DNA of 64,000 bases, taken from contig OZ242010.1 in the NCBI GenBank assembly GCA_965204745.1, positions 132,007 to 196,006 on the forward strand, read 5' to 3'. Below the pieces are notes generated by a model. It made no database searches and was not told the DNA's origin. It worked only from the letters and a program-made list of their open reading frames with translations. Positions within the stretch are counted from its first letter, which is position 1; the number at the start of each line of letters is the position of its first letter. Below are positions 19,582 through 60,923 of this stretch, piece after piece. This DNA is from Candidatus Latescibacterota bacterium. Its GTDB lineage: Bacteria; Latescibacterota; UBA2968. The position numbers and the translations under genes were made by a program.

Positions 19582-19676
19582 GGGGTCAGTCCCCGCACCG
19601 TGCCTAAGCGAGACGTGAGATGAGATTTTAGCCACGAGCGGGGTACAACTGGCGATAACCCGTTCAAAAACGAGCA

Positions 19677-23921: not shown

Positions 23922-23949
23922 TTTATTTTTCTCTCGGGGAAGGGAATCG

Positions 23950-24360: not shown

Positions 24361-24396
24361 GGTGGCGCGGTTGGGTCGTGGGTAATCAAAATCGCG

Positions 24397-25374
24397 TCAC
24401 GCCTCCGCATCCAATGCGCGCTGAAATTCACCCAGATCCGCGACTTGCACTGCCGAGCGATGCAACTGCTTGAGGCGTTGCAAATCTTCGATGGTCCGAA
24501 GGCGACCTGCGACCTGATCGGCCACGGCAGGATCAAAGCGAATCTCCAGCACGTCGAGAATCGCGTCCATGGTATGTTCCCTACCCCCTCGCTCGATACC
24601 CTGCTCAATGCCCTGCTCGATGCCCTGCTCGATGCCCTGCTCGATGCCCTGCTCAATGCCCTGCTCAATAAACTGTTCCTTGAAGTGCTCCTTGAGGTAT
24701 TGGGCAAACGATGATTCACGCATAATCGCGTCCATAAAACCCTCCTGAGAAAGAATTCGGTTGATGGTGGTCGGCTCATAAGCCAAACCACTCATGACCG
24801 CCAAGCCACCCAAAAAGTCGATCTTGCTTGAATGATCCAAGGGCATCACATCGGTCTTGCGGATACACTGACGCAACCATGCCTCTGAATCCACCCCCAC
24901 AGGAGGTCTCATCAACGGCGCGAAGGGAAGCAAGCCCGCCTGACCCCCTTCAAGAATGCTTTGCCCATCCATCTCACTCAGCCGAATCACCTTGTATTCC
25001 ACATAGATGAAATGGCCGGGAAGTTCTTGCGTGTAGCATCCTGGATCGTGCCGCCCGGCATTGCGCCGCAAGTAGATCACACAGGAATAGACCGGCAGGC
25101 CATACTGCGCGATAATGTAACCCATGTAATTGATCATGCGGCGATTCATCGGGGTGCCCGTGCTGTCGGCGGTTTGAAATTCCGTGTGAACCAAGGCCTC
25201 CTGACCGCCAATCCGCACGCGAATCAGATTATCGCTCCGGCGCATTTCAACGGTGGGTTGTTCGGTTTCGAGCAGACCGTCAACTTCCACGTCAACTCGT
25301 CCGAGAATGAATTGGACGAGGTCGTCTGGATAGTTTTGAATCAGGTGTTTGGAAATTGTATCGTACTCGGCCAT
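24397..25374 (-). CDS. Rpn/YhgA-like PD-(D/E)XK recombination-promoting nuclease (transposase_31 family) with C-terminal DUF4351-like tail and an internal (IEQG)n repeat
   Basis: N-terminal MAEYDTISKHLIQNYPDDLVQF...IRVRIGGQEALVHTEFQ (PD-(D/E)XK core). C-terminal ILDVLEIRFDPAVADQVAGRLRTIEDLQRLKQLHRSA. A paralogous copy is at 53698-54630. Confidence 0.75.
   Translation of the reverse strand: MAEYDTISKHLIQNYPDDLVQFILGRVDVEVDGLLETEQPTVEMRRSDNLIRVRIGGQEALVHTEFQTADSTGTPMNRRMINYMGYIIAQYGLPVYSCVIYLRRNAGRHDPGCYTQELPGHFIYVEYKVIRLSEMDGQSILEGGQAGLLPFAPLMRPPVGVDSEAWLRQCIRKTDVMPLDHSSKIDFLGGLAVMSGLAYEPTTINRILSQEGFMDAIMRESSFAQYLKEHFKEQFIEQGIEQGIEQGIEQGIEQGIEQGIERGGREHTMDAILDVLEIRFDPAVADQVAGRLRTIEDLQRLKQLHRSAVQVADLGEFQRALDAEA
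24590..24672. repeat. In-frame 12-bp coding microsatellite (ctgctcgatgcc / ctgctcaatgcc) x~7, encoding (IEQG)n in Rpn copy 1. Copy 2 has only about 3.5 units (53890-53935).
   Basis: Read directly in both paralogs. Confidence 0.85.
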
Positions 25375-25439
25375 GTGAATCCTCCGAAATAAAATCATAC
25401 CCATTCGATTTCAAAGCGAAAAAAAATAAAGAATCACGC

Positions 25440-25700
25440 TATTGTTTGTCAAGCGGTAAAATGACGATGGGATCGGTGGTCAGTCAAGCGAGAAGGACAG
25501 GCAAAGGGGCCTGTCCCTACGGATGATGAGGCGGGGGATGCGGAGGACACAGCGGAGTGGAACGATGAAGCGGCGGTAGGGTGGTGGGTGGATCTCGCCT
25601 CTTACTTCTTGCCTCTTACTTGGGGATAGGGCTTGCGGTTGGGCGGATGGGCGAGCACGGAGGCATCGCCCAAAAAGGTGAGAGGTGAGAGGCAAGACGG
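25440..25700. repeat. Mosaic repeat block (hairpin ggacaggcaaaggggcctgtcc, 'ggacacagcggagtgg aacgatgaagcgg' module, GA-heptamers)
   Basis: It shares modules with 23960-24060 and 51800-51870. Confidence 0.6.
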
Positions 25701-25783
25701 GAGAAGACCTACACTCACTGCTCGCCTTTGGACTGGCTACCGCCAGTTGTATCCCGCTCGTGGTGAAACGCCTATCTTCCCAC

Positions 25784-26785
25784 TTACAGCTTCTCCTCCA
25801 GCAATTGATCGATGAGGTCCGCGGTGGTGATGCCTTCGGCTTCGGCGTTGAAACTCGTGACCAAGCGGTGGCGCAACACGGGTTTGGCGACGAAGGATAC
25901 GTCTTCAATTGAAGGGGCAAAGCGACCGCTGAGCACGGCACGCGCTTTGGCGCCTAGGATCAGACACTGTGACGCGCGCGGCCCTGCGCCCCAGCGGAGC
26001 ATGGGTGCGATAGAGGTGTTTGCGTCCCTGTGGGTTTGTGGTCGGGTTTTGCGGACGAGGCGCACCGCGTGCTCTACGATGTGATCTGCGACCGGCACTT
26101 TGCGGATGAGGTGCTGGAGGTTGCGAATCTGATCCGCATCGAGCACCGGGTTGATGGCGTGGGTTTGCGCGCCTGTGGTGGCTTTGACAATGGCGCGTTC
26201 CTCTTCTTCGGTGGGATAGTCGATCCACAAGTTAAAAATGAACCGGTCGAGTTGGGCTTCGGGCAGGGGATACGTGCCTTCTTGTTCAATGGGATTTTGC
26301 GTTGCCAAGACAAAGAACGGTTCTTCGAGGCGAAAGGTCCCGCCCCCGGCCGTGACTTCGTGTTCTTGCATGGCCTGCAACAAAGCGGCTTGCGTTTTGG
26401 GCGGGGTGCGATTGATCTCGTCTGCCAAGATGATGTTGGCAAACAACGGGCCTTTGACAAAGCGAAATGTTTTGTGGCCCGTGGCGTGATCTTCTTCGAG
26501 GACTTCGGTGCCCGTGATGTCGGACGGCATCAGGTCGGGGGTGAACTGGATGCGGCTAAACGACAAGTCCAGGGCGCGGGCAAGGGTGCTGATGAGCAGG
26601 GTCTTTGCCAACCCCGGCACGCCGACGAGCAAGCAATGCCCCCCGCAGAGCAGGGCGATGAGGAGTTGATCGACGATGTCCCGCTGTCCGATGATCACTT
26701 TGCCAATTTCAGCGGTGATCTGGTCGCAGGCGGTTTTCAGGTGTTCAACGGTTTGGAGATCGTTATCAGGTGTTGCGTCTAACAT
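25784..26785 (-). CDS. MoxR-family AAA+ ATPase
   Basis: [32 protein letters not shown] (Walker A), [12 protein letters not shown] (Walker B), and the typical MoxR C-terminal region. Confidence 0.85.
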
Positions 26786-26897
26786 GGCGTGTCCTCAAGT
26801 GCGTGTCCATCCTCGCTTCCACCCCGCCGTGTGCGTTATCCCGGCCCATATTCCCCGACCTCTTGCCTCTCACGTCTTGCCTTTCACGTCTTGCCTC

Positions 26898-28082
26898 TCA
26901 CGTCTTCTGCTTCTCCTTTTTCGCAGCGGGGAAGAGGATGTTGTTGAGGATGAGGCGGTAGCCCGGGGAATTTTTGTGCAGGGCGAGTTGCGTGGGGGGG
27001 TCGTTGACGAAGTGTTGGTAGTCCTCTGGGTCGTGGCCCGCGTAAAATGTGAACGTGCCCCGGCCGATGTTGCCGTGGATGTATTTGACGTGGTTCGTGC
27101 CGGGGATGTCGCCCATGATGGTCACGGATTTTTTGATGCGGTCTTTGCGGAACGCCGTTGTTTGTCCCAAAAACCCGGGTACGATGGGCGTGTGGTTTTG
27201 CGTGAGCATCGTGGGCACGGGATCGTATTTGGCGGAAAATTCAAACAGGGAAAAAGCGTGCAGGTCCGCATCTTTGATCTGGCTCATTTCCGTGGGCGAC
27301 AGGTCGATGTCCGCGTGTTCGTATTCCATCGGGTCCAGCACCAGATTGAAGTTTTCAAAGGCCACTGTGCGCGAAAAGTCGAGTTTTTGTTGCGACATGG
27401 GATCCGCGGGGTCCCCGTCATAAACGCCATCGACAATATCGACCCCGCGGGCCGCGAGGGCAATGTCAAAGGTATCGGTTGCCGAGCACATGGCAAAGAT
27501 AAATCCGCCCTGCGTCATGTAGTTGTGAATGGCCCGTGCAACCGCGCCCTTGAGTTGCGAAACTTTGGCAAAGCCCAATTTGTGCGCGAGGGCCTCAAAC
27601 TCGGCCTGTTGCCGCCGATACCAGAGTTGGCGGCCGTGGCTGCGATAGAATTTGCCGTATTGCCCGGTGAAGTCTTCGTGGTGCAGGTGCAGCCAGTCGT
27701 AGTCCTCGAGTTGACCCGATAGCACTTCCTCGTCCCACAACGTGGTGTAGGGGATTTCCGCGTACGTGAGGGCCAAGGTCACGGCGTCGTCCCACGGCTG
27801 TTTGTGCGGCGGGGTATAGACCGCGATGCGCGGTGCTTTTTCGAGGTGCATGCGGTTCATGTTGGCGGATTCGATGTCCGCGTAGATGCGCGTGGCCTGC
27901 GCTGCGGAGATGGCCTGAAAAGATACGGCGCGGATTCGGGCTTCGCGCACAATGGTCTCGTGGAAGTCCATGAGAAAAGCCCCGCCCCGATAATTGAGCA
28001 ACCATTCCACGGGATGGCCCTCTTGCAAGGCCCAAAACGCAATGCCGTAGGCTTTGAGGTGATCGGTTTGCGTCACATCCAT
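26898..28082 (-). CDS. Hypothetical protein (~394 aa) upstream of moxR. The start is uncertain and the fold is unrecognised.
   Basis: The continuous ORF has normal composition from MDVTQTDHLKAYGIAFWALQEG... The upstream 170 codons of the track ORF are translated GA-heptamer and REP repeats and are not credible coding sequence. Confidence 0.45.
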   Translation of the reverse strand: MDVTQTDHLKAYGIAFWALQEGHPVEWLLNYRGGAFLMDFHETIVREARIRAVSFQAISAAQATRIYADIESANMNRMHLEKAPRIAVYTPPHKQPWDDAVTLALTYAEIPYTTLWDEEVLSGQLEDYDWLHLHHEDFTGQYGKFYRSHGRQLWYRRQQAEFEALAHKLGFAKVSQLKGAVARAIHNYMTQGGFIFAMCSATDTFDIALAARGVDIVDGVYDGDPADPMSQQKLDFSRTVAFENFNLVLDPMEYEHADIDLSPTEMSQIKDADLHAFSLFEFSAKYDPVPTMLTQNHTPIVPGFLGQTTAFRKDRIKKSVTIMGDIPGTNHVKYIHGNIGRGTFTFYAGHDPEDYQHFVNDPPTQLALHKNSPGYRLILNNILFPAAKKEKQKT

Positions 28083-28136
28083 CGGGATGAGCACCTTGCC
28101 GACATTGACCTGCCCCCCACCAATCGCCGCCGTGCA

Positions 28137-28500
28137 AACAGAGGATAGGGTCAAGATGAGGAAGAGGGAAGAGGCAAGAGGTGAGAGGGAAGAGGCAAGA
28201 GGTGAGAGGGAAGAGGAGAGACGGGAGAGGGAAGAGGCAAGTTTAGCCACGAGCGGGGTACAACTGGGCGACAGCCAGTTCAAAGGCACAAAAGGCACAA
28301 AAGCCACAAGCGGGGTACAACTGGGCGACAGCCAGTTCAAAGGCGAGCAGGGTGGGTAGGGGCGATGCCCTCGCGCTCGACCAAAGATACGAGAGGGAAG
28401 ACGGGAGTTTAGCCACAACAGGCACAAAAGGCACAAGAGGCGAGCAGGGTGGGTAGGGGCGATGCCCCCGTGCTCGCCCAAAGATACGAGATGGGAAAGG
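28137..28500. repeat. GA-heptamer array followed by two tandem copies of a small hairpin element (gagcggggtacaactgggcgacagccagttcaaagg) and 'cgcccaaagatacgaga' modules
   Basis: Read directly. The same mini-element is at 19628-19665 and nested in 55860-55900. Confidence 0.75.
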
Positions 28501-28619
28501 CGAGACATCCGCCCACCGTCACTCCGGCGAAAGCCAGAATCCAGTGATTTTTTGATTTTTCGCCGTGTCCGTCCGTCTTTGTGGGTGGTTATCTGTGATT
28601 GCATTCTTGGGCCTCCGTG

Positions 28620-28800
28620 TCATTATGGATCGCGGATTTTCGCGGATTAGGGGATTGCGCGGATTACCTCCCCCAACCCCTCTTGCTTCTCACGTCTTGC
28701 TTCTCACGTCTTGCCTCTCACGTCTTGCTTCTCACGTCTTGCCTCTCACGTCTTGCTTCTCACGTCTTGCTTCTCACGTCTTGCTTCTCACGCCTTTTGA
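28620..28800. repeat. aatccgcg-motif module (reverse orientation) followed by a 14-mer tandem array (cttgcttctcacgt / cttgcctctcacgt) x~8.5
   Basis: Read directly. This is the reverse complement of the GTGAGAG/GCAAGAG heptamer family. Confidence 0.8.
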
Positions 28801-30518
28801 TTCGCATCTTCGCGCGTGAGTTCGCGGGGGGCGACCATCAGGGTTTTTTCATTGCGGATTGTGACCAAACCCGGGCGCGCGCCTCGGGGCTTTTGCACAT
28901 AGCGCACTTCCGTGTGGTTGACCGGCACGCTCTTGGCCCCGCGCGCTTTGCTCCAGTACGCGGCGAGTGCGGCGGCTTCTTTCAGGGTCTTGCGAGAGGG
29001 GCGGTCCGCTCTGCCATCGCGCTTGAGGATGACGTGCGAGCCCGGGCATCCGTGAACGTGCAGGAAAATGTCGTCTCGTGCCGAGCGTTTGGTCAACCGG
29101 TCGTTTTCCGCATTGTTCCGCCCCACGAGCACGCGCCAGCCATCTCGCGTGCGATACCGCCTGGGGTGAATGTCCCCAGGCTGGCGTTTGGACTGGGCGG
29201 GCGGTCTCTTTTTTGGTTTTCTGATTAGGCGGGCGTCTTCCAATTCCCGGCGCAGGGAGTCGAGTTCATCTTCGGATTGCACGGCATTGAACCGGTCGAG
29301 GTAATGCTGGATTTTGTCCTTCTCCTGTCGGGCGATCTCGAGGCGTTTGCCGAGGATGGGCGCGCCTGTTCGCGCTTTTCGCGCCCGTTTGAGATAGTCG
29401 CTGGCATTTTCTGAGGGCGTGCGCCGCGGGTTGAGGGGAATGACCATCTCTGCGCTAGCCGGGTCGAACAAGTCGGGCAGGGTGATGGCTTCGACATAGA
29501 GGGGGATTTGCGCGAGGTGGCACATCAGCAAGTTGCCCATTCTTTCGTACTGATCCGCGCGGCCCGCGTCGGTTATGTCCTCGCGGATGCGGGTGATTTT
29601 GCGCTCTGTGGTGGTCAGGCGGTTTTGCAGGTCTTTTGCCAAATTCTTCTGCTGCCCTTGACGCGCTTCTGCCTGCACTTCTCTCGCAGCGACATCCGCG
29701 ATGGCTCGGCTCAAGGTTGAATACGTCTGCTCGGCCTGCGTGTGTTGAAGGGACAGGGCGCATACCGCGTCCCGATTGTCCATGTCGCGCACGCGCATGC
29801 CCCCGGCGCAAAAGGGCGGCGTTTTGAAAAAGGTGCTAATGGTTTGGGCAAACGCGCCGAGGTCGTCGGGCAAGAGCGGCTGTTTGTCCATCAGTCCGGC
29901 GAGATGGAGCACTTCGCAAGCCGATACCGGGTCGATCCCTGCGATGCGTTGTACCAGCGCGTTGGCGCGGGCGTCTTCGGGGCAATCGGTCAAAAAGGTG
30001 AGGGATTGCGCGGTCAGGGTTTCGGGCGGGCGGCGGTCGAGCGCGGGCGGCGGCTGATAGGTCGTCCCCGGGTAGATGGCCCGCACGCGATTTTGGCGCG
30101 CGCGCGTGGATCGCAATGCCCCGAGGATTTTGTTCGTCTCGGCGTGAACGAGAATGACATTGGCATATCGCCCGATCAATTCCACGACAATGCGGCAATC
30201 CATGGCCGTGCCAATGCGGTCGCGTTTGCGCGCGATGAGATGCACAACGCGCTCGTGGGCAACATGTTCAATGCCGATAATTCCCCCACCGCGCAAATAC
30301 CGATCCGCCCAGGGCAGTTGCACGCGCCGCGCAGGCGGTTGGGCAAATACCACGCAACTCCTGTTCGGATGCGCGGACAACAAGAGATGCCCGGCATCGC
30401 CCAAGTTCAAATACAGATCGCGCTGATCCACCAAAAAGACATCGCGTATCAAACGATAGTCAATTTGCGGTCGCAACTCATCGCACAACCTGCGAAGTGT
30501 GAGGGGGCTGAGGGTCAT
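28788..30518 (-). CDS. NFACT-family protein (FbpA/RqcH-like ribosome quality-control factor)
   Basis: N-terminal NFACT-N (MTLSPLTLRRLCDELRPQIDYRLIRDVFLVDQRDLYL...) and C-terminal NFACT-R/DUF814 (RYRTRDGWRVLVGRNNAENDRLT...HVHGCPGSHVIL). The ATG at 30518 lies 36 bp downstream of the giant gene stop. Confidence 0.75.
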   Translation of the reverse strand: MTLSPLTLRRLCDELRPQIDYRLIRDVFLVDQRDLYLNLGDAGHLLLSAHPNRSCVVFAQPPARRVQLPWADRYLRGGGIIGIEHVAHERVVHLIARKRDRIGTAMDCRIVVELIGRYANVILVHAETNKILGALRSTRARQNRVRAIYPGTTYQPPPALDRRPPETLTAQSLTFLTDCPEDARANALVQRIAGIDPVSACEVLHLAGLMDKQPLLPDDLGAFAQTISTFFKTPPFCAGGMRVRDMDNRDAVCALSLQHTQAEQTYSTLSRAIADVAAREVQAEARQGQQKNLAKDLQNRLTTTERKITRIREDITDAGRADQYERMGNLLMCHLAQIPLYVEAITLPDLFDPASAEMVIPLNPRRTPSENASDYLKRARKARTGAPILGKRLEIARQEKDKIQHYLDRFNAVQSEDELDSLRRELEDARLIRKPKKRPPAQSKRQPGDIHPRRYRTRDGWRVLVGRNNAENDRLTKRSARDDIFLHVHGCPGSHVILKRDGRADRPSRKTLKEAAALAAYWSKARGAKSVPVNHTEVRYVQKPRGARPGLVTIRNEKTLMVAPRELTREDANQKA

Positions 30519-30553
30519 AAGCGGTAAGACGGGAGAGGTAAGAAGTGAGAGGG

Positions 30554-48500: not shown

Positions 48501-51370
48501 GTGGGAGTGACGATGCGGTCGGGGAATGCGGCGTTGTAGGGCCGGGTGTAGGTCAGGGTATCGACAGTGGGCCATATCCCTGGAGTGGGAAATATCTCTG
48601 GCCTCGGGAGGTCCACGACGCCATCGGCGTTTATGTCACTGCGAATGGCAGAGAGCTGATCGAGGTTGGTTATATCGATGTAACCGTCGTTATCCAGGTC
48701 GTAGTCAACAAAGCCGTCGTTGTCTATAATCGTCAAAGAGCCGGTCACGTTGCCCACGCCTTGGTCGTTGCTCACCCCAACAACCACGGACACTACGATA
48801 TCCGCGGTATTGACTGCGTTGTCCACGGCCGTGAGGATCACCGTGTCCGACGCGTTCGTCGTGTCCCCGGCCGCGATGGTGATCGTCGAATCCGCCCCCA
48901 CCGTGTAAGTATCCGCCACCGGGCGCACGGTGATCGTCGTGATCGCGCTCGATAGATGCGACAGGGTCGCCGTGACCGTGGAAACGCCGAGCGCCTCCGA
49001 AATCGTCGAGGGCGACATCGACAAGGTTATGTCCGGCGCGGCCTCATCGTCGGTGATCGTCAGCATCAGGGTAGCCGGGATCGTCGCCCCATTGTCGCTC
49101 TGCACAATTGTGGGCACGGTCACTCTGTTGTCCGGCGCATCGGTTATATTGTCCACGGCCGTGAGGATCACCGTGTCCGACGCGTTCGCGGTTTGTCCTG
49201 CCGCGATGGTGATCGTCGAATCCGTCCCCACGGTATAAGCCCCCGCCACCGGGCGCACCGTGATCGTCGTCGCCAGGGTCGATGCGCGAGACAGGGCCGC
49301 CGTGATCGTGGCAACACCGCCGTTCTCCGAAATCGTTGACGGGTTCGCCGCCAGCGTCACTGTCGGCGCGGCCTCATCGTCGGTGATCGTCAATGTCGCG
49401 TTCAATACCGACAATGTGTCGCTCGAAGCTGACCCCGAGACGGTCACGCGCCTGTGCCGCGCATCGGCGGTCGCGTTGTTCACCGCTGTGATCGTCACAA
49501 GTCCCGTGCTCGTCGTCGCATTCGCCGCGACAGTCAGCGTCTTCGCGGCCGATAGCGTGAAATCGCCCGCAACCGTAGGCGATACCCCTGTCGCAGCCAC
49601 CGTGATCGTCACTGCGTTGTTCACCGCTCTCGGCAATGTTGCCGTTACAGTCGTCCGATTGGTCGCACCGCTCTCGTCGATCGTCGAAGGCGCGAGTGTC
49701 AACCTCGCCACCGCAATCTGGGCGGCAAATTGCGCGGTGGTGTCCATGCCTGCATACTTCAAGACCGGATACTGATACGCCGTGCCAAAGGTCCACGGAT
49801 CATCGTCGCCGAGTTGCCCGTCGATGTCGATGTTCCAGTTTTCGTAGATGCCGGTGTATGTCGTAACGGATACGAGATCGCTGGTGATATAGCCGGTGCC
49901 GACAGCACTGGTGTCTTGTCCACTGGTCAAAGTGTCCCAATAATTGTCGCGTGTGCTGGTGTTTCTCTTCAGCCCTACTAACCCGCCGACGCGGGAGGTT
50001 CCGGTGACCCGGCCGGTGGCGTAAGAGTTTATTACCCTACCTGGAGGATACCCTGTGGATGGCGAGTAAACAGCTCCGCCCAGCAAACCGCCGACACCGA
50101 TGTGACCGCTGACAGATGCAGTGGAGTAGCTCGTAGAGATAATTCCTAAGGATTCGCCGACTAATCCACCTGCATAATGTGAGTAGCGAGAATTTAAGGC
50201 CCTGACCGTGCCTGTGGTGTAGCAGGCGACAATTTCGCCAGCAGTGTAAGCGGCCAGAATGCCTGCACCACCTAAGGTTGTGATATTGGCGTTGGTTATG
50301 CCCAGGGTTTCGACGCGGGATCCGGGGCCAAGCTGGTAAAACAGACCTGCATACGCGCTGCCATCCCGATAGAGACGGAGGTCGCTGAATAGGTTGTTTA
50401 TGGTGTGACTGTTGCCCTTGAAGTTGCCTGTGAGGCTGTAGGGTAGCCAGCCAGCGCCGTTGTTCCAGTATTTGCCGCTGTGGTCGTTGGCATCTACATC
50501 GCCATCGCCGTCGCTGTCGAAGTCGAGGCTTGCGGTGAGTTCGTAGCCGACGCATCCGGAAGTGGGGCAGCCCATGAGTCCAACGGAAGCGTTAGCAGTG
50601 GCGATGCGGTTGGGGAATGCGGCGTTGTAGGCGGCACCCTCCCGCAGATTTGTCGCGACGGAGATGGAATCGAGCCATCCCTGAGTAAAAGGGCGACTTC
50701 CCGCAGCGCGCCATGCCGCGATGCTGACCGCTAAGGCAAGGGAATCGGCGACCGAATGGGCTCTATCCCGGGCGCCATCGGTGTCCATGTCATAGCGAAT
50801 GGCATTGAGCTGATCGAGGTTGGCTACATCGATGTAACCGTCGTTATCGAAGTCGTAGTCAACCTCATCGTCGGTGATCGTCAGGGTCACGGCAGACGGG
50901 GCCAATGCCCCATTGCCACCCGCCGCCGTTGCAGACACGGTCACGCGCTTGCTCGGCACCTGGGTCCTATCGTCCACCGCCGTGATCGTCACGATCCCCG
51001 TGCTCGTCGTCGCATTCGCCGCTATCGTCAGCGTGGTCGCGGCCGATAGCGTGAAATCGCCCGCAACCGCAGGCGATACAGCCGTAGCTGAAACCGTGAT
51101 CGTCGTCGCCTCGGTCGCAGTGCGATCCAGCGTTGCCGTGATCGTGGAAACCCCGCCGTTCTCCGAAATCGACGACGGAGACAAAACCAACGTCACCTGG
51201 GCGTTTTGGGCAAAAGCCGACCCCGATGCCATCAGCAAAACCAGCACGATATAGAACCACACCCCAAGAAGGGGATGGCCGCCATGAACCCCGGTTTTCG
51301 CGGGAGGACAAGCGGTGGGAACCGAGGGCCTAAATGGGTTCAAACAGCGTCTGAAAATTTCGGCAATCAT
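30554..51370 (-). CDS. Giant secreted multi-domain protein (6,938 aa). N-terminal: 3 GLUG-motif modules interleaved with Calx-beta. Middle: ~45 Calx-beta-like domains in ABC triplet super-repeats. C-terminal: (PE)13 linker, 4 He_PIG/cadherin-like domains, and a type-I dockerin.
   Basis: Single uninterrupted ORF. The hydrophobic leader is WFYIVLVLLMASGSAFAQ. Calx-beta consensus: ISENGGVSTITATL...TITVSA.AVSPAVAGDFTLS...TLTIAA..TTSTG.VTITAVDN. GLUG: GGLVGE/GGLLGG. C-terminal DFNGDGVVNFADFSNFVVKY...YDLNGDGQIDYDDFRIFAAIYG. The exact start codon is uncertain because there is no SD at 51370. Confidence 0.85.
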   Translation of the reverse strand: MIAEIFRRCLNPFRPSVPTACPPAKTGVHGGHPLLGVWFYIVLVLLMASGSAFAQNAQVTLVLSPSSISENGGVSTITATLDRTATEATTITVSATAVSPAVAGDFTLSAATTLTIAANATTSTGIVTITAVDDRTQVPSKRVTVSATAAGGNGALAPSAVTLTITDDEVDYDFDNDGYIDVANLDQLNAIRYDMDTDGARDRAHSVADSLALAVSIAAWRAAGSRPFTQGWLDSISVATNLREGAAYNAAFPNRIATANASVGLMGCPTSGCVGYELTASLDFDSDGDGDVDANDHSGKYWNNGAGWLPYSLTGNFKGNSHTINNLFSDLRLYRDGSAYAGLFYQLGPGSRVETLGITNANITTLGGAGILAAYTAGEIVACYTTGTVRALNSRYSHYAGGLVGESLGIISTSYSTASVSGHIGVGGLLGGAVYSPSTGYPPGRVINSYATGRVTGTSRVGGLVGLKRNTSTRDNYWDTLTSGQDTSAVGTGYITSDLVSVTTYTGIYENWNIDIDGQLGDDDPWTFGTAYQYPVLKYAGMDTTAQFAAQIAVARLTLAPSTIDESGATNRTTVTATLPRAVNNAVTITVAATGVSPTVAGDFTLSAAKTLTVAANATTSTGLVTITAVNNATADARHRRVTVSGSASSDTLSVLNATLTITDDEAAPTVTLAANPSTISENGGVATITAALSRASTLATTITVRPVAGAYTVGTDSTITIAAGQTANASDTVILTAVDNITDAPDNRVTVPTIVQSDNGATIPATLMLTITDDEAAPDITLSMSPSTISEALGVSTVTATLSHLSSAITTITVRPVADTYTVGADSTITIAAGDTTNASDTVILTAVDNAVNTADIVVSVVVGVSNDQGVGNVTGSLTIIDNDGFVDYDLDNDGYIDITNLDQLSAIRSDINADGVVDLPRPEIFPTPGIWPTVDTLTYTRPYNAAFPDRIVTPTSSVGPMGCPTSGCVGYELLNDLNFDSDGDSDVDADDHGGKYWDNGRGWRPIAGTSGAFYGDRYDYRYWVPGGDQGHQSGYLGYFKGNGHTIKNLFIKRTSTVGFSVSKLGLFYSLGIGSRVESLGIINANVTGGSYLGILAGILFKGTIVACYTHGTVSGQDFAPVGTPTPHFTPWGVNSHSIGGLVGFSFQGTIHASYSMANVSEVRDVGGLVGTAWQNTHISSSYANGIVTGGNAFGRIIRSERDQGAVLPAVGVGVGGAEEYPSVEASWAGGLVGNANDESTCYTYSGATFACGGVRATTNIANFSYWDMHSSGKGTSALGVGKTTHELRSITGYTGIYSNWNIDIDGQGGNDDPWHFGTASQYPVLKYADMDTDLQFNLQPRLVTLILTPRQIDESGTANQTTVTAALTKPLTSAVVVTVSATAVAPAVAGDFTLSTAKTLTIAANATTSTGTVTITAVDNAIDAPWKRVTVAATVSGANDITTSHAILTIADDESTPTVTMAVNPSSISENGGVATVTATLSGSSVAPTSITVRPVPGVYTVGATNSTITIAAGQTATTDTVIITAVDNMIHAPDNSRGVWVQVTNWHGINVVTAELTFTEDEDPPDVTMEVSPTSIAETGEVSTVTATLSRPSSAVTTITVRPVTGAYAVGMDSTIIIAAGQTANASDTVVITTVDNAITAGDKTVTVLSAVDNSAGTGTVTAATLTITDDDRPHATLVLSPSSISEAGGVSTITATLDRPATEATTITVSATAVPPAVSGDFTLSAATTLTIAASVTTSTGLVTITAANNMIQASDKRVTVSATVAGGNGAVARSTVTLMITENVIDYDEDNDGYIDVANLDQLNAIRYDLNGDGFVAPADTMNYNAYNAAFPNRFTAAAERMGCPSGRCVGYELTASLDFDSNGDGDVDATDHSGKYWDGGSGWLPIACCRTSNSYTGYFKGNGHTINNLFINRTIYGSGTNPNFLGLFFKLGAFSRVETLGITNANITGISHVGILAGQNHGTIVACYTTGRVAGFNPIEWRWPDPSPRGGYTIGGLVGRTDIRGKISTSYSTASVSGSRYVGGLVGRIFNSVIINSYAIGPVSSTDRVRAGNWRRWHGSGGFIGGLNQNTNDISNSYYDTETSGLSRAIGAVHSPDPDTSGVTSKTTAELVSVTGYTGIYENWNIDIDGQPGDDDPWHFGTVNQYPVLKYDGMDTTVQFDLQPEIVMLTLTPSTISENGGVSTVTARLTQSLDATTTITVRPVAEAYTVGMDSTIIIASGQTANASDTVVITAVDNNTASGDKRVTVFSAVDNSASTRTVALATLTIADDDVAQVMLVLSPASISEDGGVSTITATLDRPTTKATTITVSATAESPAVAGDFTLSTAKTLTVAANATASTGLVTITSVNNTTDAPDKRVTVSATVAVGNLASAPSAVTLMITDDDDPPTVALSLSPASISEASGVSTITATLSHESSEATTITVRPVAGAYTVGTDSTIVIAAGQTANTSDTVLITAVNNTTHAPDNDVTVNVVPRNAQGVGSVTAATLTITEDEAAPEVTIAVSPTSISENIAVSTVTATLNRPSSAATTITVSVTPVLPAVVGDYTLSTAKTLTVAAGETTSTGTVTITTVNNSVASGDKTVTVTGTPSNSVGVGSSVTAATLTIADDDVAQVTLVLSPTSISENAEVSTVTARLNRPATEATTITVSAEAVSPAVAGDFTLSATTTLTIAASVTTSTGTVTITSVNDTTDAPDKEVTVSGTATGGNMASAPSDVTLTITDDEAAPTVALLLSPASISEASGVSTITATLSHKSSEATTITVRSVPGAYTVGATDSMIVIAAGQTANAPDTVIITAVDNMIHAPNNSVTVSVVPRNDQGVGSSVTGTALTITEDEAASAVTIAVSPTSIAETGEVSTVTATLSRPSSAATTITVSVTPVSPAVGGDYTLSTAKTLTIAAGETTSTGTVTITTVDNSVASGDKTVTVTGTPTNSVGTGSVTAATLTIADDDVAQVTLILSPTSISENAKVSTVTATLNRPATTATTITVSAEAVSPAVAGDFTLSATTTLTIAASVTTSTGTVTITSVNDTTDAPDKRVTVSGTVAAGNLASAPDDVTLTITDDDAAPTVALTLSPASISEASGVSTITATLSHKSSEATTITVRSVPGAYTVGATDSTIVIAAGQTANATDTVIITAVDNTTHAPNNSVTVPVVPHNDQGVGSIVTGTALTITEDEAAPDVTIAVEPTSIAETGAVSTVTATLSRPSSAATTITVSVTPVLPAVVGDYTLSTDKTLTVAAGETTSTGSVTITTVNNNIASGDKTVTVTGTPTNSVGVGSSVTPATLTIADDDVAQVMLILSPASISENAEVSTVTATLDRPATEATTITVSAEAVSPAVAGNFTLSTATTLTIAASVTTSTGTVTITSVNDTTDAPDKRVTVSGTATGGNMASAPSAVTLTITDDEAAPTVALSLSPASISEASGVSTITATLSHESSAATTITVRSVPGAYTVGATDSTIVIAAGQTANATDTVLITAVDNMIHAPNNSVTVPVEVSNDQGVGSSVTGTALTITEDEDPPDVTMAVSPTSIAETGAVSTVTATLNRPSSAATTITVRSVPGAYTVGATDSTIVIAAEQTANTSDMVVITTVDNNIASGARMVTVTGTPSNSVGTGSVTAATLTITDDDMAQVTLVLSPTSISENAKVSTITATLNRPATTATTITVSAEAVSPAVAGDFTLSAATTLTIAANATASTGSVTITSVNDTTDAPDKRVTVSATVAAGNLASAPSDVTLTITDDEAAPTVALSLSPASISEASGVSTITATLSHKSSEATTITVSAEAVSPAVAGDFTLSTMKTLTFAAGETTSTGSVTITAVNNTTHAPNKRVTVSGAAGNAQGVGNVPDATLTITEDEAAPEVTMAVAPTSISENVAVSTVTATLNRPSSAATTITVSVTPVLPAVVGDYTLSTAKTLTIAAGETTSTGTVTITTVNNNIASGDKTVTVTGTPANSVGVGSSVTAATLTITDDDVAQVTLVLSPTSISENAKVSTVTATLNRPATEATTITVSAEAVSPAVAGDFTLSAAKTLTIAASETTSTGIVTITSVNNTTDAPDKRVTVSGTATGGNMASAPSDVTLTITDDDAAPTVALSLSPASISEASGISTITATLSHESSEATTITVRPVAGAYTVGATDSTIVIAAGQTANATDTVLITAVDNMIHAPNNSVTVSVVPRNDQGVGSSVTGTALTITEDEDPPDVTIAVSPTSISETVAVSTVTATLSRPSSAATTITVRSVPGAYTVGATDSTIVIAAGQTANATDTVLITTVDNAIASGARMVTVTGTPSNSVGTGSVTAATLTITDDDMAQVTLVLSPASISENAKVSTVTATLNRPATDATTITVSAEAVSPAVAGDFMLSTTKTLTIAANATASTGTVTITSVNDTTDAPNKRVTVSGTVAAGNLASAPSDVTLTITDDEAAPTVALTLSPASISEASGVSTITATLSHKSSEITTITVRSVPGAYTVGATDSTIVIAAGQTANATDTVLITAVDNTTHAPNNSVTVPVEVSNDQGVGSSVTGTALTITEDEDPPDVTMAVVPTSISENGAVSTVTATLNRPSSAATTITVRPVTGAYTVGMDSTIVIAAGQTANTSDTVVITTADNNIASGDRMATVTGTPSNSVGTGSVTAATLTITDDDVAKVTLVLSPASISENAKVSTVTATLNRPATTATTITVSAEAVSPAVAGDFTLSATTTLTIAASVTTSTGSVTITSVNDTTDAPNKRVTVSGTVAAGNLASAPSDVTLTITDDEAAPTVALSLSPASISEASGISTITATLSHKSSEATTITVSAEAVSPAVAGDFTLSNTKTLTFAAGETTSTGSVTITAVNNTTHAPNKRVTVSGAAGNAQGVGNVPDATLTISEDEAAPDVTMAVAPTSISENVAVSTVTATLNRPSSAATTITVSVTPVSPAVVGDYMLSTAKTLTVAAGQTTSTGSVTITTVNNNIASGDKTVTVTGTPTNSVGVGSSVTDATLTITDDDVAQATLVLSPTSISENAEVSTVTATLNRPATTATTITVSAEAVSPAVAGDFTLSAATTLTIAANATASTGTVTITSVNDTTDAPDKRVTVSGTAAGGNMASAPSDVTLMITDDDAAPTVALSLSPASISEASGISTITATLSHESSAATTITVSAEAVSPAVAGDFTLSTTKTLTFAAGETTSTGSVTITAVNNTTHAPNKRVTVSGVAGNAQGVGNVPDATLTITEDEAPPDVTMAVSPSSISENVAVSTVTATLNRPSSAATTITVRSVPGAYTVGATDSTIVIAAGQTANTSDTVIITTVDNNNASGDRMVSVTGTPSNSVGTGSVTDATLTITDDDVAQVTLVLSPTSISENGGVSTITATLDRPATDATTITVSAEAVSPAVAGDFTLSATTTLTIAASVTTSTGTVTITSVNDTTDAPNKRVTVSATVAVGNLASAPSDVTLTITDDDDAPTVALSLSPASISEASGVSTITATLSHKSSEATTITVRSVPGTYTVGATDSTIVIAAGQTANTSDTVLITAVDNTTHAPDNSVTVSVVPRNDQGVGSSVTGTALTITEDEAAPAVTIAVSPTSIAETGEVSTVTATLNRPSSAATTITVRSVPGAYTVGATDSTIVIAAGQTANASDMVVITTVDNNNASGDRMVTVTGTPSNSVGTGSVTDATLTITDDDVAQVTLVLSPASISENAKVSTVTATLNRPATTATTITVSAEAVSPAVAGDFTLSATTTLTIAASVTTSTGTVTITSVNDTTDAPNKRVTVSATVAAGNLASAPSDVTLTITDDDAAPTVALSLSPASISEASGVSTITATLSHKSSAATTITVSAEAVSPAVAGDFTLSTTKTLTVAAGETTSTGSVTITAVNNTTHARDKRVTVSGVAGNAQGAGNVTAATLTITEDEAAPDVTMAVSPSSISENIEVSTVTATLNRPSSAATTITVSVPTSSDYTLSTATTLTVSAGQTTSTGTVTITTVNNNIASGSKTVTVTGTPSNSVGVGSSVTPATLTITDDDVAQVMLVLSPSSISENGGVSTITATLDRTATAATTITVSALAVSPAVAGDFTLSATTTLTIAASVTTSTGTVTITAVNDTTDAPNKRVTVSATVAAGNLASLSSSEPLTITDDDDPPTVMLTPDPSSISENGAVSTITATLSHKSSAITTITVRSVPGAYTVGATDSTIAIAAGQTANTADTVIITSVDNNRDAPPRNVVVTGVARNDQGAGSVTGGSLTLTDDDVAPAVTMVVSPASISENGGVSTVTATLSHPSSEATTIAVSVPTSSDYTLSTATTLTVAAGQTTSTGIVTITTVNNNIASGSKTVTVTGTPSNSQGAGSVTSATLTITDDDVPQVTLVLSPVAITENGGVSTVTATLDRPATEATTITVSTEAESSVDDFTLSTTTTLTVAAGQTTSTGTVTITAVDNSFNEPDKRVTVSATVTGGNLASLASPVTLTIEEDDPPERPATPEPEPEPEPEPEPEPEPEPEPDTELTFTDAVDPQSYYQHRAIKPLTLPAAVLYGDETMRTLTYSLPDLPEGLTFDAETLTVSGTPLKAIKKAIYTLTATEEDGDEAGLSFFLTVIANPIPSFGDASVAAQAYMRKQEIESLTLPQATGGDKPLTYALTPDLPEGLSFDKKTRVLSGTPLEAIADTTYTLTATDRNGDEATLMFILSVMTDPIPTFGETTVAAQGYVQYQKIDPLTLPPATGGDKPLTYALLPDLPEGLTFDAETRIASGTPIKAMDETTYTLTATDGNGDEVHLLFTLEVQNWMPTFGDTTIDPQSYLVNQEIASLTLPQASNDDGMLVYILLPFLPEGLSFDPTTRTLSGLPTEAKAQATYTLSALEADGDTASLPFTLEVSLPSPDFNGDGVVNFADFSNFVVKYESRLGQKRYDALYDLNGDGQIDYDDFRIFAAIYGSTGETTAIGNWDLPP
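31888..31953. repeat. 6-bp tandem repeat (ggttct/ggctcg) encoding the (PE)13 linker
   Basis: Read directly. The + strand reading gives the GSGS... ORF 31872-32504. Confidence 0.8.
32900..44700. repeat. About 11.5 near-identical (~93-97%) tandem super-repeats of ~1,026 bp (three Calx-beta domains each) inside the giant gene
   Basis: The + strand antisense ORFs recur with a 1,011-1,035 bp period (33924, 34935, 35955, 36990, 37998, 39009, 40044, 41055, 42081, 43104, 44124). Their products are >90% identical. Confidence 0.85.
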
Positions 51371-51469
51371 TCTGAAGTCTCGAAAAATACAACGAGTTGC
51401 ACGGGCAGGGCTTTTGCCTGCGTGCGCGAAATAAAGATGGTGGAGGACAAAATAAGACTTTACGCCATT

Positions 51470-51960
51470 TCGTCAAAGCGTAAAGTGACGAGGGGATCGT
51501 CAAGGCAAGGGGGAATGGGACCTACCCCCTGGCCCCGTTACTCGCTACGCTTCGTTGTAGGCTACGCCTGTGCCTAAAAGGAAGGGGGAATGGCGATGGG
51601 TCTTCCGAGGGGAATGGCGAGAGGGGTTGCGAGGGATTGTGCGAGAGGGGTTTGGTTTTTCATGGCGTGATTCATTCGCTCAAAGCCATCAAAACAGCTA
51701 GGGAGACAAACCTTCAAGAAAGCCATACGCGCCCCCTTTCCTCGTAGACACAGGCGTAGCCTACAATGAGCGAAGCGAATAACGGGGGTCGGGGGGATAG
51801 GGCTATGGCGACAGGGCATGCGAAGGACACAGCGGAGTGGGAACGATGAAGCGGTGGTAGGGCGGTGTGGGGTAATCCGCGCAATCCGCGTAATCCGTTT
51901 AATCCGCGATTCAGACACGGTGGGGTGGAAAGGGCACGCACACGGCGGAGTTGCTCGCTG
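51470..51960. repeat. Mosaic repeat block R2. It is homologous to R1 at 23950-24360, and its first 90 bp are the reverse complement of 59090-59170.
   Basis: By-eye alignment. The repeated pseudo-ORF 'MAFLKVC(I/L)P(G/S)CFDGF' is seen in both. Confidence 0.7.
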
Positions 51961-51978
51961 ATCGCTCATCATGATAGC

Positions 51979-52007
51979 TTGACAGTTTGGCGTCATACTG
52001 GTATTGT
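51979..52007 (+). promoter_or_regulatory. Sigma-70-like promoter TTGACA-17-TATTGT upstream of the clpX-like gene
   Basis: ttgacagtttggcgtcatactggtattgt lies ~120 bp upstream of the start at 52129. Confidence 0.45.
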
Positions 52008-52128
52008 TTAGAGACTTACTCCCGCCCCCCTAATATCTCCGCTCCCCGCGTCGGAGAGCGACCGAGAGAGGGGTAGCTTTCTTACGTCTCACGTCTTACG
52101 CCTTTCATCTCACCACATTGGAGCTTTT

Positions 52129-53664
52129 ATGTCGAAAAAACAACCTTTCTCGCCGACGGATTTGCAAAAAGACCTCAAGGATTTCCTCGAGCAAAAATAC
52201 GGCAGTCAGGTGGTCGTGCAACAGGGAGAACCCGCCGGGATGAAGGAGGACCCGCCCGTGGAAGAGCCCGCAGAGGAGACCATTGATTTTGACCTCAAAC
52301 CCGAAGAACTGGAGGCGTATTTAGACGAGTATGTGGTCGAGCAGGGCGCGGCAAAAGAAGTGTTGGCAACCAAGATCTGCACGCATTACAACCGCATGAA
52401 ACTCGACCGCGAAGACCCGGAGTTTTCGCGCAAAAACGTGGGGCAGATCAAAAACAACATCCTCCTGATCGGGCCTACGGGTGTGGGCAAAACGTATTTG
52501 ATCAAGTTGATCGCGCAGCGCATTGGCGTGCCCTTTGTCAAGGGCGATGCGACCAAATTCAGCGAGACGGGATACGTGGGCGGCGATGTCGAAGACCTCA
52601 TTCGGGAACTGGTGCGCGAGGCCGATGGCAGCATTGCAAAGGCGCAATACGGGATTGTGTACATCGACGAAATCGACAAAATCGCGTCGTCCTCAAATCT
52701 GACCGGCCCGGATGTGTCGCGCACCGGCGTTCAGCGCAACTTGCTCAAGTTGATGGAAGAGACCGATGTCGATCTCAAAGCACCGCACGACCTCACGTCG
52801 CAGATGGAATCGATGATGCAATTTCAGCGCAGTGGCAAAGTGGAGCGGCAAAAAATCAACACGCGCAACATTTTGTTTATCGTCAGCGGCGCGTTCAGCG
52901 ATCTTGAGGACATCGTGCGAAAGCGGCTCAATTTGGGCAAGGTCGGGTTTCAATTTGAGCGCGAGATCGCCCAGGCACAGGAACGGGATCGGACCGCGCT
53001 TTTGCAAGAGGTCAAAACAGAAGACCTCATCGAATACGGGTTTGAGTCTGAATTTGTGGGCCGGTTGCCGGTCACGGCGATTTTGACATCCTTGAGCGTT
53101 GACGATCTCTACGCGATTTTGAAAAGCCCGACGAGTTCGGTGATCGTGGGCAAAAAACGCGATTTCAAAGCCTACGGCATCGATCTGAAATTTGACGACG
53201 ACGCGTTGCAGTTGCTGGCTGAACAAGCCGCGCTAGAACAAACCGGCGCGCGCAGTCTGGTCAGCGTTTGCGAACGCGCCTTGCTCAAATTTGAAAAATC
53301 CCTGCCCTCAACGGATATCGACGCCTTCCGCGTGACGAAAAGTGTGATCGAATCCCCCGAGCACGCACTTCGGCAATTGTTGGTCTTGCGGGACACGGGC
53401 GCGTTTGTCGACCGGTTTCGAGACGCTTACGGCATCGCGCTCACGTTCGACGATGCGGCCCTGCGAGAACTCGCGCAAAAAGCAAAGAGCGAACATCGCC
53501 CGGTTCACGAGATCTGCCAAGATATGTTCGACGACTACGGACACGGGCTGAAGTTGCTCGGACACGCGACATTTGAAATCCCCGCCGAAGCCACGCGCCG
53601 CCCCAAAGATTTTCTCAACAGTCTGGTCAAAGCATTTTACCAAGCGGATAGGGCAGAAAAATAA
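52129..53664 (+). CDS. ClpX-like AAA+ unfoldase lacking the N-terminal zinc-binding domain (acidic N-terminal extension instead)
   Basis: LIGPTGVGKTYLIKLIAQRIGVPFVKGDATKFSETGYVGGDVEDLI (Walker A plus GYVG pore loop), GIVYIDEIDKI (Walker B), VGF loop (LNLGKVGFQF) and sensor-2 GARSL. There is no C4 zinc finger at the N-terminus. Confidence 0.75.
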   Translation: MSKKQPFSPTDLQKDLKDFLEQKYGSQVVVQQGEPAGMKEDPPVEEPAEETIDFDLKPEELEAYLDEYVVEQGAAKEVLATKICTHYNRMKLDREDPEFSRKNVGQIKNNILLIGPTGVGKTYLIKLIAQRIGVPFVKGDATKFSETGYVGGDVEDLIRELVREADGSIAKAQYGIVYIDEIDKIASSSNLTGPDVSRTGVQRNLLKLMEETDVDLKAPHDLTSQMESMMQFQRSGKVERQKINTRNILFIVSGAFSDLEDIVRKRLNLGKVGFQFEREIAQAQERDRTALLQEVKTEDLIEYGFESEFVGRLPVTAILTSLSVDDLYAILKSPTSSVIVGKKRDFKAYGIDLKFDDDALQLLAEQAALEQTGARSLVSVCERALLKFEKSLPSTDIDAFRVTKSVIESPEHALRQLLVLRDTGAFVDRFRDAYGIALTFDDAALRELAQKAKSEHRPVHEICQDMFDDYGHGLKLLGHATFEIPAEATRRPKDFLNSLVKAFYQADRAEK

Positions 53665-53697
53665 CCCCGCCCCGCTTCCCTTCATCGGAAAATCGCG

Positions 53698-54630
53698 TCA
53701 CGCCTCCGCGTCCAATTCGCGCTGAAATTCACCCAGATCCGAGACTTGCACTGCCGAGCGATGCAACTGCTTGAGGCGTTGCAAATCTTCGATAGCTCGA
53801 ATGCAACCTGCGACCTGATCGGCCCCGGCAGGATCAAAGCGAATCTCCAGCACGTCGAGAATCGCGTCCATGGTATGTTCCCTACCCCCTCGCTCAATGC
53901 CCTGCTCAATGCCCTGCTCAATGCCCTGCTCAATAAACTGTTCCTTGAAGTGTTCCTTGAGGTATTGGGCAAACGATGATTCACGCATAATCGCGTCCAT
54001 AAAACCCTCCTGAGAAATGATACGCTTGATGGTGTTCGACTCATAAGCCAAGCCACTCATGACCGCCAAGCCACCCAAAAAGTTGATCTTGCTTGAATGA
54101 TCCAAGGGCATCGCATCGGTCTTGCGGATACACTGACGCAACCATGCCTCTGAATCCACCCCCACAGGAGGTTTCATCAACGGCGCGAAAGGAAGCAAGC
54201 CCGCCTGACCCCCTTCAAGAATGCTTTGCCCATCCACCTCACTCAGCCGAATCACCTTGTATTCCACAAAGATGAAATGGCCGGGAAGTTCTTGCGTGTA
54301 GCATCCTGGATCGTGCCGCCCGGCATTGCGCCGCAAGTAGATCACACAGGAATAGACCGGCAGGCCATACTGCGCGATAATGTAACCCATGTAATTGATC
54401 ATGCGGCGATTCATCGGGGTGCCCGTGCTGTCGGTGGTTTGAAATTCCGTGTGAACCAAGGCCTCCTGACCGTCAAGGCGCACGCGAATCAGATTATCGC
54501 TTCGACGCAGGTGGGTTGTTCGGTTTCGAGCAGACCGTCAACTTCCACATCAACTCGTCCGAGGATGAATTGGACGAGGTCGGCTGGATAGTTTTGAATC
54601 AGGTTTGGAAATTGTATCGTACTCGGCCAT
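53698..54630 (-). pseudogene. Rpn/YhgA-like PD-(D/E)XK gene, copy 2, disrupted by at least two frameshifting deletions near the 5' end
   Basis: ~90% nt identity to 24397-25374. A ~7-nt deletion at ~54505 and a 2-nt deletion at ~54606 relative to copy 1 split the N-terminus (MAEYDTISK) into ORF 54550-54756, out of frame with the body ORF 53698-54483. Confidence 0.65.
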
Positions 54631-60858: not shown

Positions 60859-60923
60859 CGGTCACCGCGCTGTCTCTCTCGAGTTGTCAGTTGTCAGTCC
60901 GCCCTCAACACAGGAGAAATGTC

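Follow-up and report, generated by a model that had tools for sequence, protein, structure and literature searches.

Two paralogues of a divergent Rpn-type gene in a Latescibacterota bacterium, one of them a frameshifted candidate RpnS-like remnant

The stretch of DNA analysed here, called the window, comprises 64,000 nucleotides (nt) of a Candidatus Latescibacterota bacterium (GenBank assembly GCA_965204745.1, contig OZ242010.1), and all coordinates are given on that stretch. It carries two closely related genes, copy 1 at 24397-25374 and copy 2 at 53698-54630, both on the minus strand, which was confirmed as described in an original prediction made from the sequence. It is quite probable that both genes represent, as paralogues of each other, a divergent toxin-antitoxin or defence gene of the Rpn type, that copy 2 is an orphan RpnS-like remnant, and that their position on either side of a 28-kb segment is incidental. 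This reading is built on observed sequence relationships, residue conservation, variability of a short repeat, a frameshift shared between strains and copy numbers in related genomes.

A divergent branch of the Rpn family

The rpn genes were described by Zhong and others as toxin-antitoxin and antiphage genes (Zhong et al., PMC10400941). The RpnS antitoxin is the C-terminal part of the protein, translated separately from an internal start, and a dodecamer repeat encoding four residues, found 8-20 residues past the RpnS methionine, varies strongly in number between strains and sets the pairing of the long product, RpnL, with RpnS (PMC10400941). Copy 1 presents the following features:

24397..25374, minus strand: copy 1, Rpn-like nuclease gene (RpnL-type), intact open reading frame (ORF) of 325 amino acids (aa)
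25381..25385, minus strand: Shine-Dalgarno (SD) sequence GGAGG, 7 nt before the copy 1 ATG
24397..24735, minus strand: internal in-frame ORF of 112 aa from M214, candidate RpnS-type antitoxin
24741..24746, minus strand: internal SD sequence AGGAGG, 5 nt before the M214 ATG
24586..24669, minus strand: hypervariable 12-nt tandem repeat, six units IEQG and one unit IERG
24388..24396, minus strand: conserved tail CGCGATTTT past the stop codon, where homology with copy 2 ends
25417..25754, minus strand: leader of about 340 nt made of small intergenic repeats, absent from copy 2

The start of copy 1 was set at 25374 rather than at 25404 because of the position of the SD sequence and because the N-termini of the family all read MAEYD. 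Family alignments, hhalign and a model obtained with AlphaFold2 (AF2) point to an N-terminal PD-(D/E)XK-like core, with residues D5, D48, E65-x-Q67, R79 and Y83, followed by a helical C-terminal part. Two alignments were used, a shallow one with 39 sequences and a diverse one (A6) with 43 sequences reaching down to 24% identity. In the shallow alignment the invariant positions are D48, H63, E65-F-Q67-T, R79 and V99-I-Y-L-R, and Y83 is nearly invariant. Across the 43 diverse sequences D48, E65 and Y83 are invariant, and D5, Q67 and R79 are conserved in at least 90%.

By using hhalign, the 43-sequence profile was matched to RpnA and RpnC with 91% probability and an E value of 1.1e-6 over 91 columns. 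The register places D5, D48, E65, Q67 and R79 on D11, D63, E82, Q84 and R94 of RpnA, five residues at which mutation abolishes or alters RpnA function (PMC5350276). The model TIGR01784, 'Rpn family recombination-promoting nuclease/putative transposase', was matched by 21 of the 43 relatives, with a best E value of 5.5e-14; Pfam matches among them were to PF04754 (2/43), PF12784 (1/43) and PF14261 (1/43, 8.6e-4). As judged from these profiles, the Rpn/YhgA-like PD-(D/E)XK label given in the original prediction is correct as a remote homology, which is carried by the diverse profile and the 21 relatives and not by PF04754 or TIGR01784 matches of the window protein itself. The family is a divergent branch, one that escapes the curated models.

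The AF2 model of the copy 1 protein, with a predicted local distance difference test (pLDDT) score of 78, combines alpha and beta elements in a core at residues 1-135, while its C-terminal part is helical. Weak Foldseek matches were obtained with the Cap4 nuclease, XisH, DdmD, BstEII, Kpn2I and viral PD-(D/E)XK proteins, and in this model-based comparison they lean towards restriction-endonuclease-like nucleases. The C-terminal domain was modelled as a long helix followed by three short helices, with a pLDDT of about 90 over residues 50-110.

Two further hallmarks of rpn genes are the variable repeat and an internal start. The array holds seven 12-nt units in copy 1, four in copy 2, three in L001 (a stretch of a 5.28-Mb ENA contig about 98% identical to the window), two in L091 (a short-read metagenome scaffold) and three in L090, and length variation at the repeat is also seen across the family alignment. 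The IEQG repeat resembles the KGIE repeat of RpnC and begins about 22 residues after M214. In copy 1 the codons TCT CAG GAG GGT TTT ATG hold a perfect AGGAGG 5 nt ahead of M214. The codons xAG-GAG-GGT were found in 62 of 62 loci located by motif search, against a background use of 56% for GAG and 25% for GGT, and the neighbouring third positions vary. These sequence signals make M214 a candidate internal start, and its product a candidate RpnS-type antitoxin.

Several results weigh against this assignment and this layout. The window protein reaches no curated Rpn model: its Pfam scan (E<=10) gave no match but a spurious Yae1_N and left PF04754 unmatched, TIGR01784 gave no match at E<=0.01, and a PADLOC scan returned nothing useful. 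In comparison, E. coli K-12 rpnA and rpnC, taken as positive controls, matched PF04754 at 1e-91 and 2e-87. With the shallow 39-sequence profile, hhalign reached only 12% probability, a sequence-profile search of the PDB gave 0 matches, and Foldseek of the full model against the PDB and viral libraries gave none at E<0.01. For the C-terminal domain, a Foldseek comparison with the PDB gave no significant match, and the RpnA-S crystal structure was not among the results, so the homology of this domain rests on its layout and on one PF14261 match. The synonymous-site comparison at the internal SD sequence used loci from many genomes that are not independent, 62 located of 84, and M214 is invariant in the close family and variable in the remote branch. 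Matches of the window protein to FliH (NCBIfam) and to a 'putative invertase' were set aside as compositional, since they fall on the EQGI repeat.

Compared with E. coli RpnA-RpnE (PF04754/COG5464; PMC5350276, PMC10400941), the window genes share the order D...ExQ...R..Y with the five essential RpnA residues, a repeat of four residues (12 nt), of the same kind and highly variable in number, that lies in a long C-terminal helix and has an SD sequence and ATG shortly before it, and the occurrence as single-gene units with variable flanks, without terminal inverted repeats or target-site duplications, in many copies per genome. They differ in that the window protein lies below detection by PF04754 and TIGR01784 and has no significant structural or sequence match to RpnA-S, and in that the region of about residues 135-210, between the core and the C-terminal domain, is specific to the window family. 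The expansion to at least 26 copies per genome, in Latescibacterota and some metagenome-assembled genomes (MAGs) of Gemmatimonadota, is a further difference. TIGR01784, also named 'T_den_put_tspse' and found in Treponema denticola, cyanobacteria and others, is likewise multi-copy and is matched by half of the divergent relatives, whereas it does not detect the window protein or the relatives close to it. Its historical 'transposase' name comes from copy number; transposase activity is known for no member, and it has been considered 'highly unlikely' that Rpn proteins are transposases (PMC10400941).

Both genes would therefore be placed by homology in a so far unannotated branch of the Rpn family (YhgA-like, COG5464/TIGR01784). 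The long, RpnL-type product is predicted to be a DNA endonuclease with an N-terminal PD-(D/E)XK-type domain, probably toxic, by analogy with E. coli; the short, RpnS-type product from the internal ribosome-binding site and ATG would bind and neutralise it, and the number of IEQG units may set the specificity of this pairing. By the same analogy the system would act as a toxin-antitoxin or antiphage module and not as a transposase. Here we infer nuclease activity, toxicity, RpnS translation and its antitoxin role, and the defence function, from homology and gene layout. The family probably spreads as single-gene units, and it is massively amplified in Latescibacterota.

In a set of 5.8 billion proteins, at least 2081 close homologues were found, none with a Pfam domain, and an exhaustive search gave 6089 representative clusters at E<=1e-3. 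These 'hypothetical proteins' would now become assignable to the Rpn superfamily, and the apparently conserved catalytic residues and RpnL/RpnS gene-within-gene layout would extend this architecture to Latescibacterota and Gemmatimonadota MAGs. A scan of genome collections returned at least 583 matches, 519 of them confirmed, and the best 80 are nearly all on Latescibacterota MAG chromosomes. A 324-aa gene without Pfam matches, located near RqcH on contig L094, was considered and ruled out as a family member.

Copy 2 and the relation of the two copies

The two copies are identical at 898 of 933 ungapped columns (96.2%). The identity of about 90% estimated earlier is reproduced if gaps are counted (91.9%, blastn) and is too low for the ungapped columns. 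The homology takes in 24 nt ahead of the start codon and 9 nt beyond the stop codon and breaks off abruptly in unrelated flanks, so the gene-limited extent proposed at first, from the stop codon to about 20 bp before the start, stands with slightly wider limits. No third copy, even a remote one, was found in the window by tblastn.

The features of copy 2 are as follows:

53698..54630, minus strand: copy 2, frameshifted Rpn-like gene, RpnL nuclease frame destroyed and C-terminal part intact
between 54604 and 54605, minus strand: 2-bp deletion (AC), present in the window only, not in L001 or L091
54550..54552, minus strand: premature stop that closes the frame of the copy 2 ATG after 26 codons
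between 54509 and 54510, minus strand: 7-bp deletion (GTTGAAA), common to the window, L001 and L091
54006..54011, minus strand: internal SD sequence AGGAGG
53698..54000, minus strand: intact internal ORF of 100 aa, candidate stand-alone RpnS-type antitoxin
between 53919 and 53920, minus strand: 36-bp deletion, equal to three in-frame 12-nt repeat units
53887..53934, minus strand: 12-nt repeat array, three units IEQG and one unit IERG

The locus of copy 2 was compared in three independent assemblies (the window, L001 and L091) made with different technologies. Because the 7-bp deletion is identical in all three, it is real and older than the split of the strains, and a sequencing error as the cause of this frameshift was ruled out. 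The 2-bp deletion could be a mutation of later date or an error in the assembly. The 100-aa ORF, its SD sequence and its ATG are free of lesions in all three assemblies. The description of copy 2 as decayed by frameshifting deletions was consequently borne out for the 7-bp lesion and proved incomplete for the gene as a whole, in which the RpnS-like module is intact. As predicted from sequence, copy 2 has lost the nuclease and is effectively a separate stand-alone RpnS-type gene.

Stand-alone RpnS genes (DUF4351, PF14261) are known, and the E. coli example, ypaA, located downstream of rpnE, is expressed (PMC10400941). Copy 2 resembles them as a C-terminal module with its own SD sequence and ATG, and differs in having arisen by frameshift decay at a distant locus and not as a duplicated fragment beside its parent. 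Its four repeat units against the seven of copy 1 are also a mismatch by the E. coli pairing rule. Copy 2 would be a natural example of the origin of a stand-alone RpnS by frameshift loss of the nuclease half, fixed across strains. Novelty is limited to this example of RpnS orphaning and to the unannotated branch of a known family; the labels that annotation pipelines would give, plain pseudogene for copy 2 and hypothetical protein for copy 1, could be improved.

It is possible, though we lean away from it, that copy 2 is a dead pseudogene, with a C-terminal ORF that is a functionless leftover and lesions that are perhaps partly assembly errors. Substitution on the copy-2 lineages is about 3 times faster, with 32 private substitutions (19 non-synonymous, 13 synonymous) against 10 on the intact copy-1 lineages (window and L090), an excess in line with decay. 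The 2-bp deletion confined to the window points the same way, as do fragmented members of the same 90%-identity cluster and the pseudogenes L017, L021 and L033 among the copies on the Latescibacterota chromosome OY282377.1. Set against this are the 7-bp deletion, identical in assemblies of different technologies, the C-terminal ORF and its start signals kept without lesion, and the expressed E. coli ypaA. On the copy-2 lineages the ratio omega, from small counts, is about 0.4 and so below neutrality; it does not tell residual selection from imported conversion tracts, which tempers the case for a maintained RpnS-like remnant.

Several members of the 90%-identity cluster elsewhere are split into two ORFs per contig (226+97, 129+133 and 141+58 aa), which reflects either frameshifted copies common in the population or indel errors of long-read assemblies. 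The same cluster has only one member on the L001 contig, which hints that copy 1 is absent from that genome.

The gene itself as the duplicated unit, as suggested originally, agrees with what was found at its ends and with the published account of rpn genes (PMC10400941), while the qualification 'IS-like' does not. Terminal inverted repeats are lacking in both copies, where only short internal matches at chance level occur and none pairs the termini, and no target-site duplication was found, the sequences just outside the homology differing on the two sides of each copy. The copies resemble insertion sequences and composite transposons as a gene-sized unit repeated at many loci, with two same-strand copies flanking other genes; they are unlike them in having no inverted ends, no target-site duplication and no common ends past about 24 nt and 9 nt, and one copy is nuclease-dead. 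Searches with transposase families against the window protein and the 43 relatives gave no match beyond the historical names PF04754 and PF12784. No transposition of rpn genes was found in the published analysis, and no autonomous transposase with a PD-(D/E)XK fold is known (PMC10400941). The insertion-sequence reading was ruled out on the absence of terminal inverted repeats and target-site duplications.

A short tail following the stop codon (TGA|CGCGATTTYCC) recurs in many genomes, with protein identities there of only 55-65%, and the conserved unit therefore extends slightly beyond the ORF; the tail may serve as the end of the unit, as a terminator or as a site of recombination. This non-coding sequence, TGA CGCGATTTYCCGMTGAATGRCAA, was seen in L012, L018, L022, L024, L030, L031, L035-37, L042, L044, L050, L051, L053 and others. 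The length kept is about 22 nt in copy 2 (53676-53697) and only 9 nt in copy 1 (24388-24396).

Copy 1 is 98.7% identical to the copy on the L090 contig. Ten fixed differences part copy 1 and the L090 copy from copy 2 and the L001 copy, and just a single site varies in the way that recent conversion within the genome of the window would predict. Given these fixed differences and the almost absent signal of recent exchange, the two loci have been separate since before the strains split. The pair arose either by duplication or by homogenisation of older paralogues.

That the gene-limited near-identity reflects gene conversion, in a concerted evolution of older and independently placed paralogues, is in our view rather unlikely. 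Conversion tracts would be confined to ancestral homology, so identity limited to the gene is what this process predicts. On OY282377.1, a chromosome of 5.66 Mb, at least 26 copies were counted, many of them 95-99% identical, with mosaic blocks whose boundaries lie at many end points. The private differences are clustered, as in the six changes in columns 601-622 of copy 2, and copy 2 differs by 3.7% from its positional orthologue in L001 where the flanks differ by about 2%. The ten fixed differences with a single site of the recent-conversion type speak against it, as does the 7-bp deletion, which was left unrepaired from copy 1. Under the paralogue reading that we prefer, copy 2 would have arisen by duplication or by gene-conversion homogenisation before the sampled strains split, would then have lost the nuclease frame by the 7-bp deletion, and may persist as an orphan RpnS-like gene.

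The intervening segment and the bracketing

The segment between the copies lies outside the element and holds the following genes:

25784..53664: intervening segment, given as context
25784-26785: MoxR
26898-28604: 568-aa protein of unknown function
28788-30572: RqcH/NFACT
30554-51370: 6938-aa repetitive He_PIG/GLUG/dockerin surface protein
52129-53664: ClpX-like AAA+ ATPase

MoxR, RqcH and the giant repetitive protein are present as first described, to which the 568-aa protein and the ClpX-like ATPase are added. No tRNA and no integrase were found in the segment, and the GC content of 0.55-0.63 makes no step at either copy. A genomic island bounded by direct repeats was ruled out on these grounds and on the housekeeping-type content. 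An Rfam scan of the window revealed no known RNA.

It had been considered suggestive that two nuclease genes stand at the ends of a surface-protein locus, and recombination between them was expected to delete or amplify the segment. Neither idea is upheld by the present data. On OY282377.1, six adjacent pairs lie within 35 kb of each other (five on the same strand) against 4.0 expected under uniform placement. The original prediction had itself held that many copies scattered at random would make the flanking arrangement uninformative, and for the related genomes this is what the paralogue count revealed. Because related genomes carry many scattered copies, and close pairs on OY282377.1 occur at the chance rate, the bracketing has no demonstrable meaning. 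One consideration tells the other way: if the copy number of the window genome were about 5, a same-strand neighbour within 30 kb would be met by chance only in about 2% of cases. The pair needs no special mechanism, the family being already known as multi-copy, single-gene and repeat-variable.

A functional bracket, that is, a composite-transposon-like or programmed module in which an Rpn nuclease or RecA deletes, excises or amplifies the 28-kb segment, is highly unlikely. In its favour, two repeats on the same strand, about 930 bp long and 96% identical, are sufficient for homologous recombination to act on. In E. coli, RecA-independent recombination is increased by RpnA (PMC5350276), and the neighbourhood varies between strains, with three junctions downstream of MoxR and a giant gene encoding 6938 or 7972 aa. 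However, copy 2 has been unable to make the nuclease since before the strain split, and the segment holds RqcH, MoxR and the ClpX-like ATPase and shows no island signature. The order of SIS protein, copy 2, ClpX-like ATPase and giant protein is syntenic in all three assemblies that cover copy 2, and the junction expected from recombination between the copies was seen in none of the assemblies examined. Further points against it are the strain breakpoints, which spare the copies and fall in small repeats of the intergenic regions next to MoxR and RqcH, the chance rate of close pairs on OY282377.1 and the published lack of transposition by rpn genes (PMC10400941). As incidental paralogues, the two copies would act as passive 0.9-kb direct repeats, able to support ordinary homologous recombination, and not as a dedicated device for deletion or amplification.

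Downstream of MoxR three arrangements were found: the leader with copy 1 (window and L004), a block with SACS and NOV_C (L002, L006, L007 and L090) and a third one (L003 and L005). In the L090 contig, 8.8 kb (L090:783-9557) with SACS-like and NOV_C-domain proteins and a 1172-aa DnaE-type polymerase stand at the place of window 25727-25754, followed by the leader and the copy-1 orthologue, and the genes further downstream differ from those of the window. The MoxR-side junction of L002, L006 and L007 is as in L090.

RqcH is 97.6% identical in L094 (1-15885) and L095, where homology to window 28710-30550 stops at both gene ends. Upstream of it lie UvrD, an AAA_15/21 ATPase, PIN/UPF0150 and an N6_N4 methyltransferase with RE_MjaI, and downstream an RND pump. 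This relocation points to a very high plasticity of gene order, or to gene-sized exchange, in the lineage. Gene-sized conserved blocks with shuffled neighbours are a general property of the lineage and go beyond the nuclease genes and the segment. Identity between the window RqcH and its counterpart in OZ251458.1, a Latescibacterota MAG, is 89%, which places the window organism in the same phylum as the high-copy relatives.

It is also conceivable, if improbable, that this extreme gene-by-gene shuffling between strains about 98% identical is driven by the amplified Rpn-like nucleases, with paralogous copies and the small intergenic repeats around them as their sites of action, and with decayed copies such as copy 2 serving as orphan RpnS antitoxins that tune which nuclease paralogues are active. 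If this were true, the family would be a domesticated system of genome plasticity in Latescibacterota, beyond a defence gene.

Leaders, repeats and neighbouring genes

The leader of copy 1 is 82% identical to that of the orthologous copy on L090 and is related to the leader found on OY282377.1. Copy 2 has no leader, since only 74 nt separate it from the end of the SIS gene on its upstream side. Around copy 1, a direct-repeat pair was found:

25431..25528: element B, about 100 nt, upstream member, 89% identical to 23941-24041
23941..24041: element B, about 100 nt, downstream member

On OY282377.1, about 10 of the 26 genes stand between direct copies of an element of about 115 nt with its own inverted termini (CTAAGAGTCCCTAACAAAAAG ... 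CTTTTTCTTAGGGCTTCTAAG), examples within the range L009-L064 being L009:2587-2700 with L009:4012-4125, L013:2540 with 4013 and L020:2542 with 3953. The right-hand element overlaps the stop codon of the gene, and the outer boundaries are sharp, in a CTAAG/CTTAG context. Among the loci fetched, this element was seen in OY282377.1 only, where about 17 copies also have a common 450-nt leader. The bracketing departs from the published lack of defined rpn ends and could represent a mobilisable cassette bracketed by miniature inverted-repeat transposable elements.

Small intergenic repeats are distributed along the window at 122-166, 7632-7683, 19606-19758, 23941-24055, 24292-24365, 25417-25754, 28163-28360, 28457-28480, 28615-28803, 51516-51588, 51805-51928, 59093-59170 and 60724-60904. 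They belong to families such as GGATTAGGGGATTGCGCGGATTACCCC and the hairpin CGTAGGGACAGGC...GCCTGTCC, are similar to repetitive extragenic palindromic sequences and bacterial interspersed mosaic elements (REP/BIME-like) and have no Rfam match. The copy 1 leader consists of such repeats, and the strain-level breakpoints occur at them.

The giant protein differs in length between the window (6938 aa) and the sister genome, which is 98% identical (7972 aa, L001:13008-20774), so the internal repeats of its gene, of about 345 nt and about 1 kb, vary in number from strain to strain. The gene directly downstream of copy 1, at 20955-23921, encodes a 988-aa protein with at least 10 low-density lipoprotein (LDL)-receptor class B (YWTD) repeats, which are of a eukaryote-like kind; this protein is absent at the corresponding position of L090, a contig that also carries a Cas12f1-like_TNB (TnpB-type) gene.

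An intergenic sequence of 240-270 nt occurs twice in the window in inverted orientation, 44.6 kb apart, at 10846-11086 and 55680-55946 (two blocks, 94-98% identical). One copy is located between the SIS gene adjoining copy 2 and a UPF0182 gene, and recombination between the two would flip the region that holds both Rpn-like genes and the segment.

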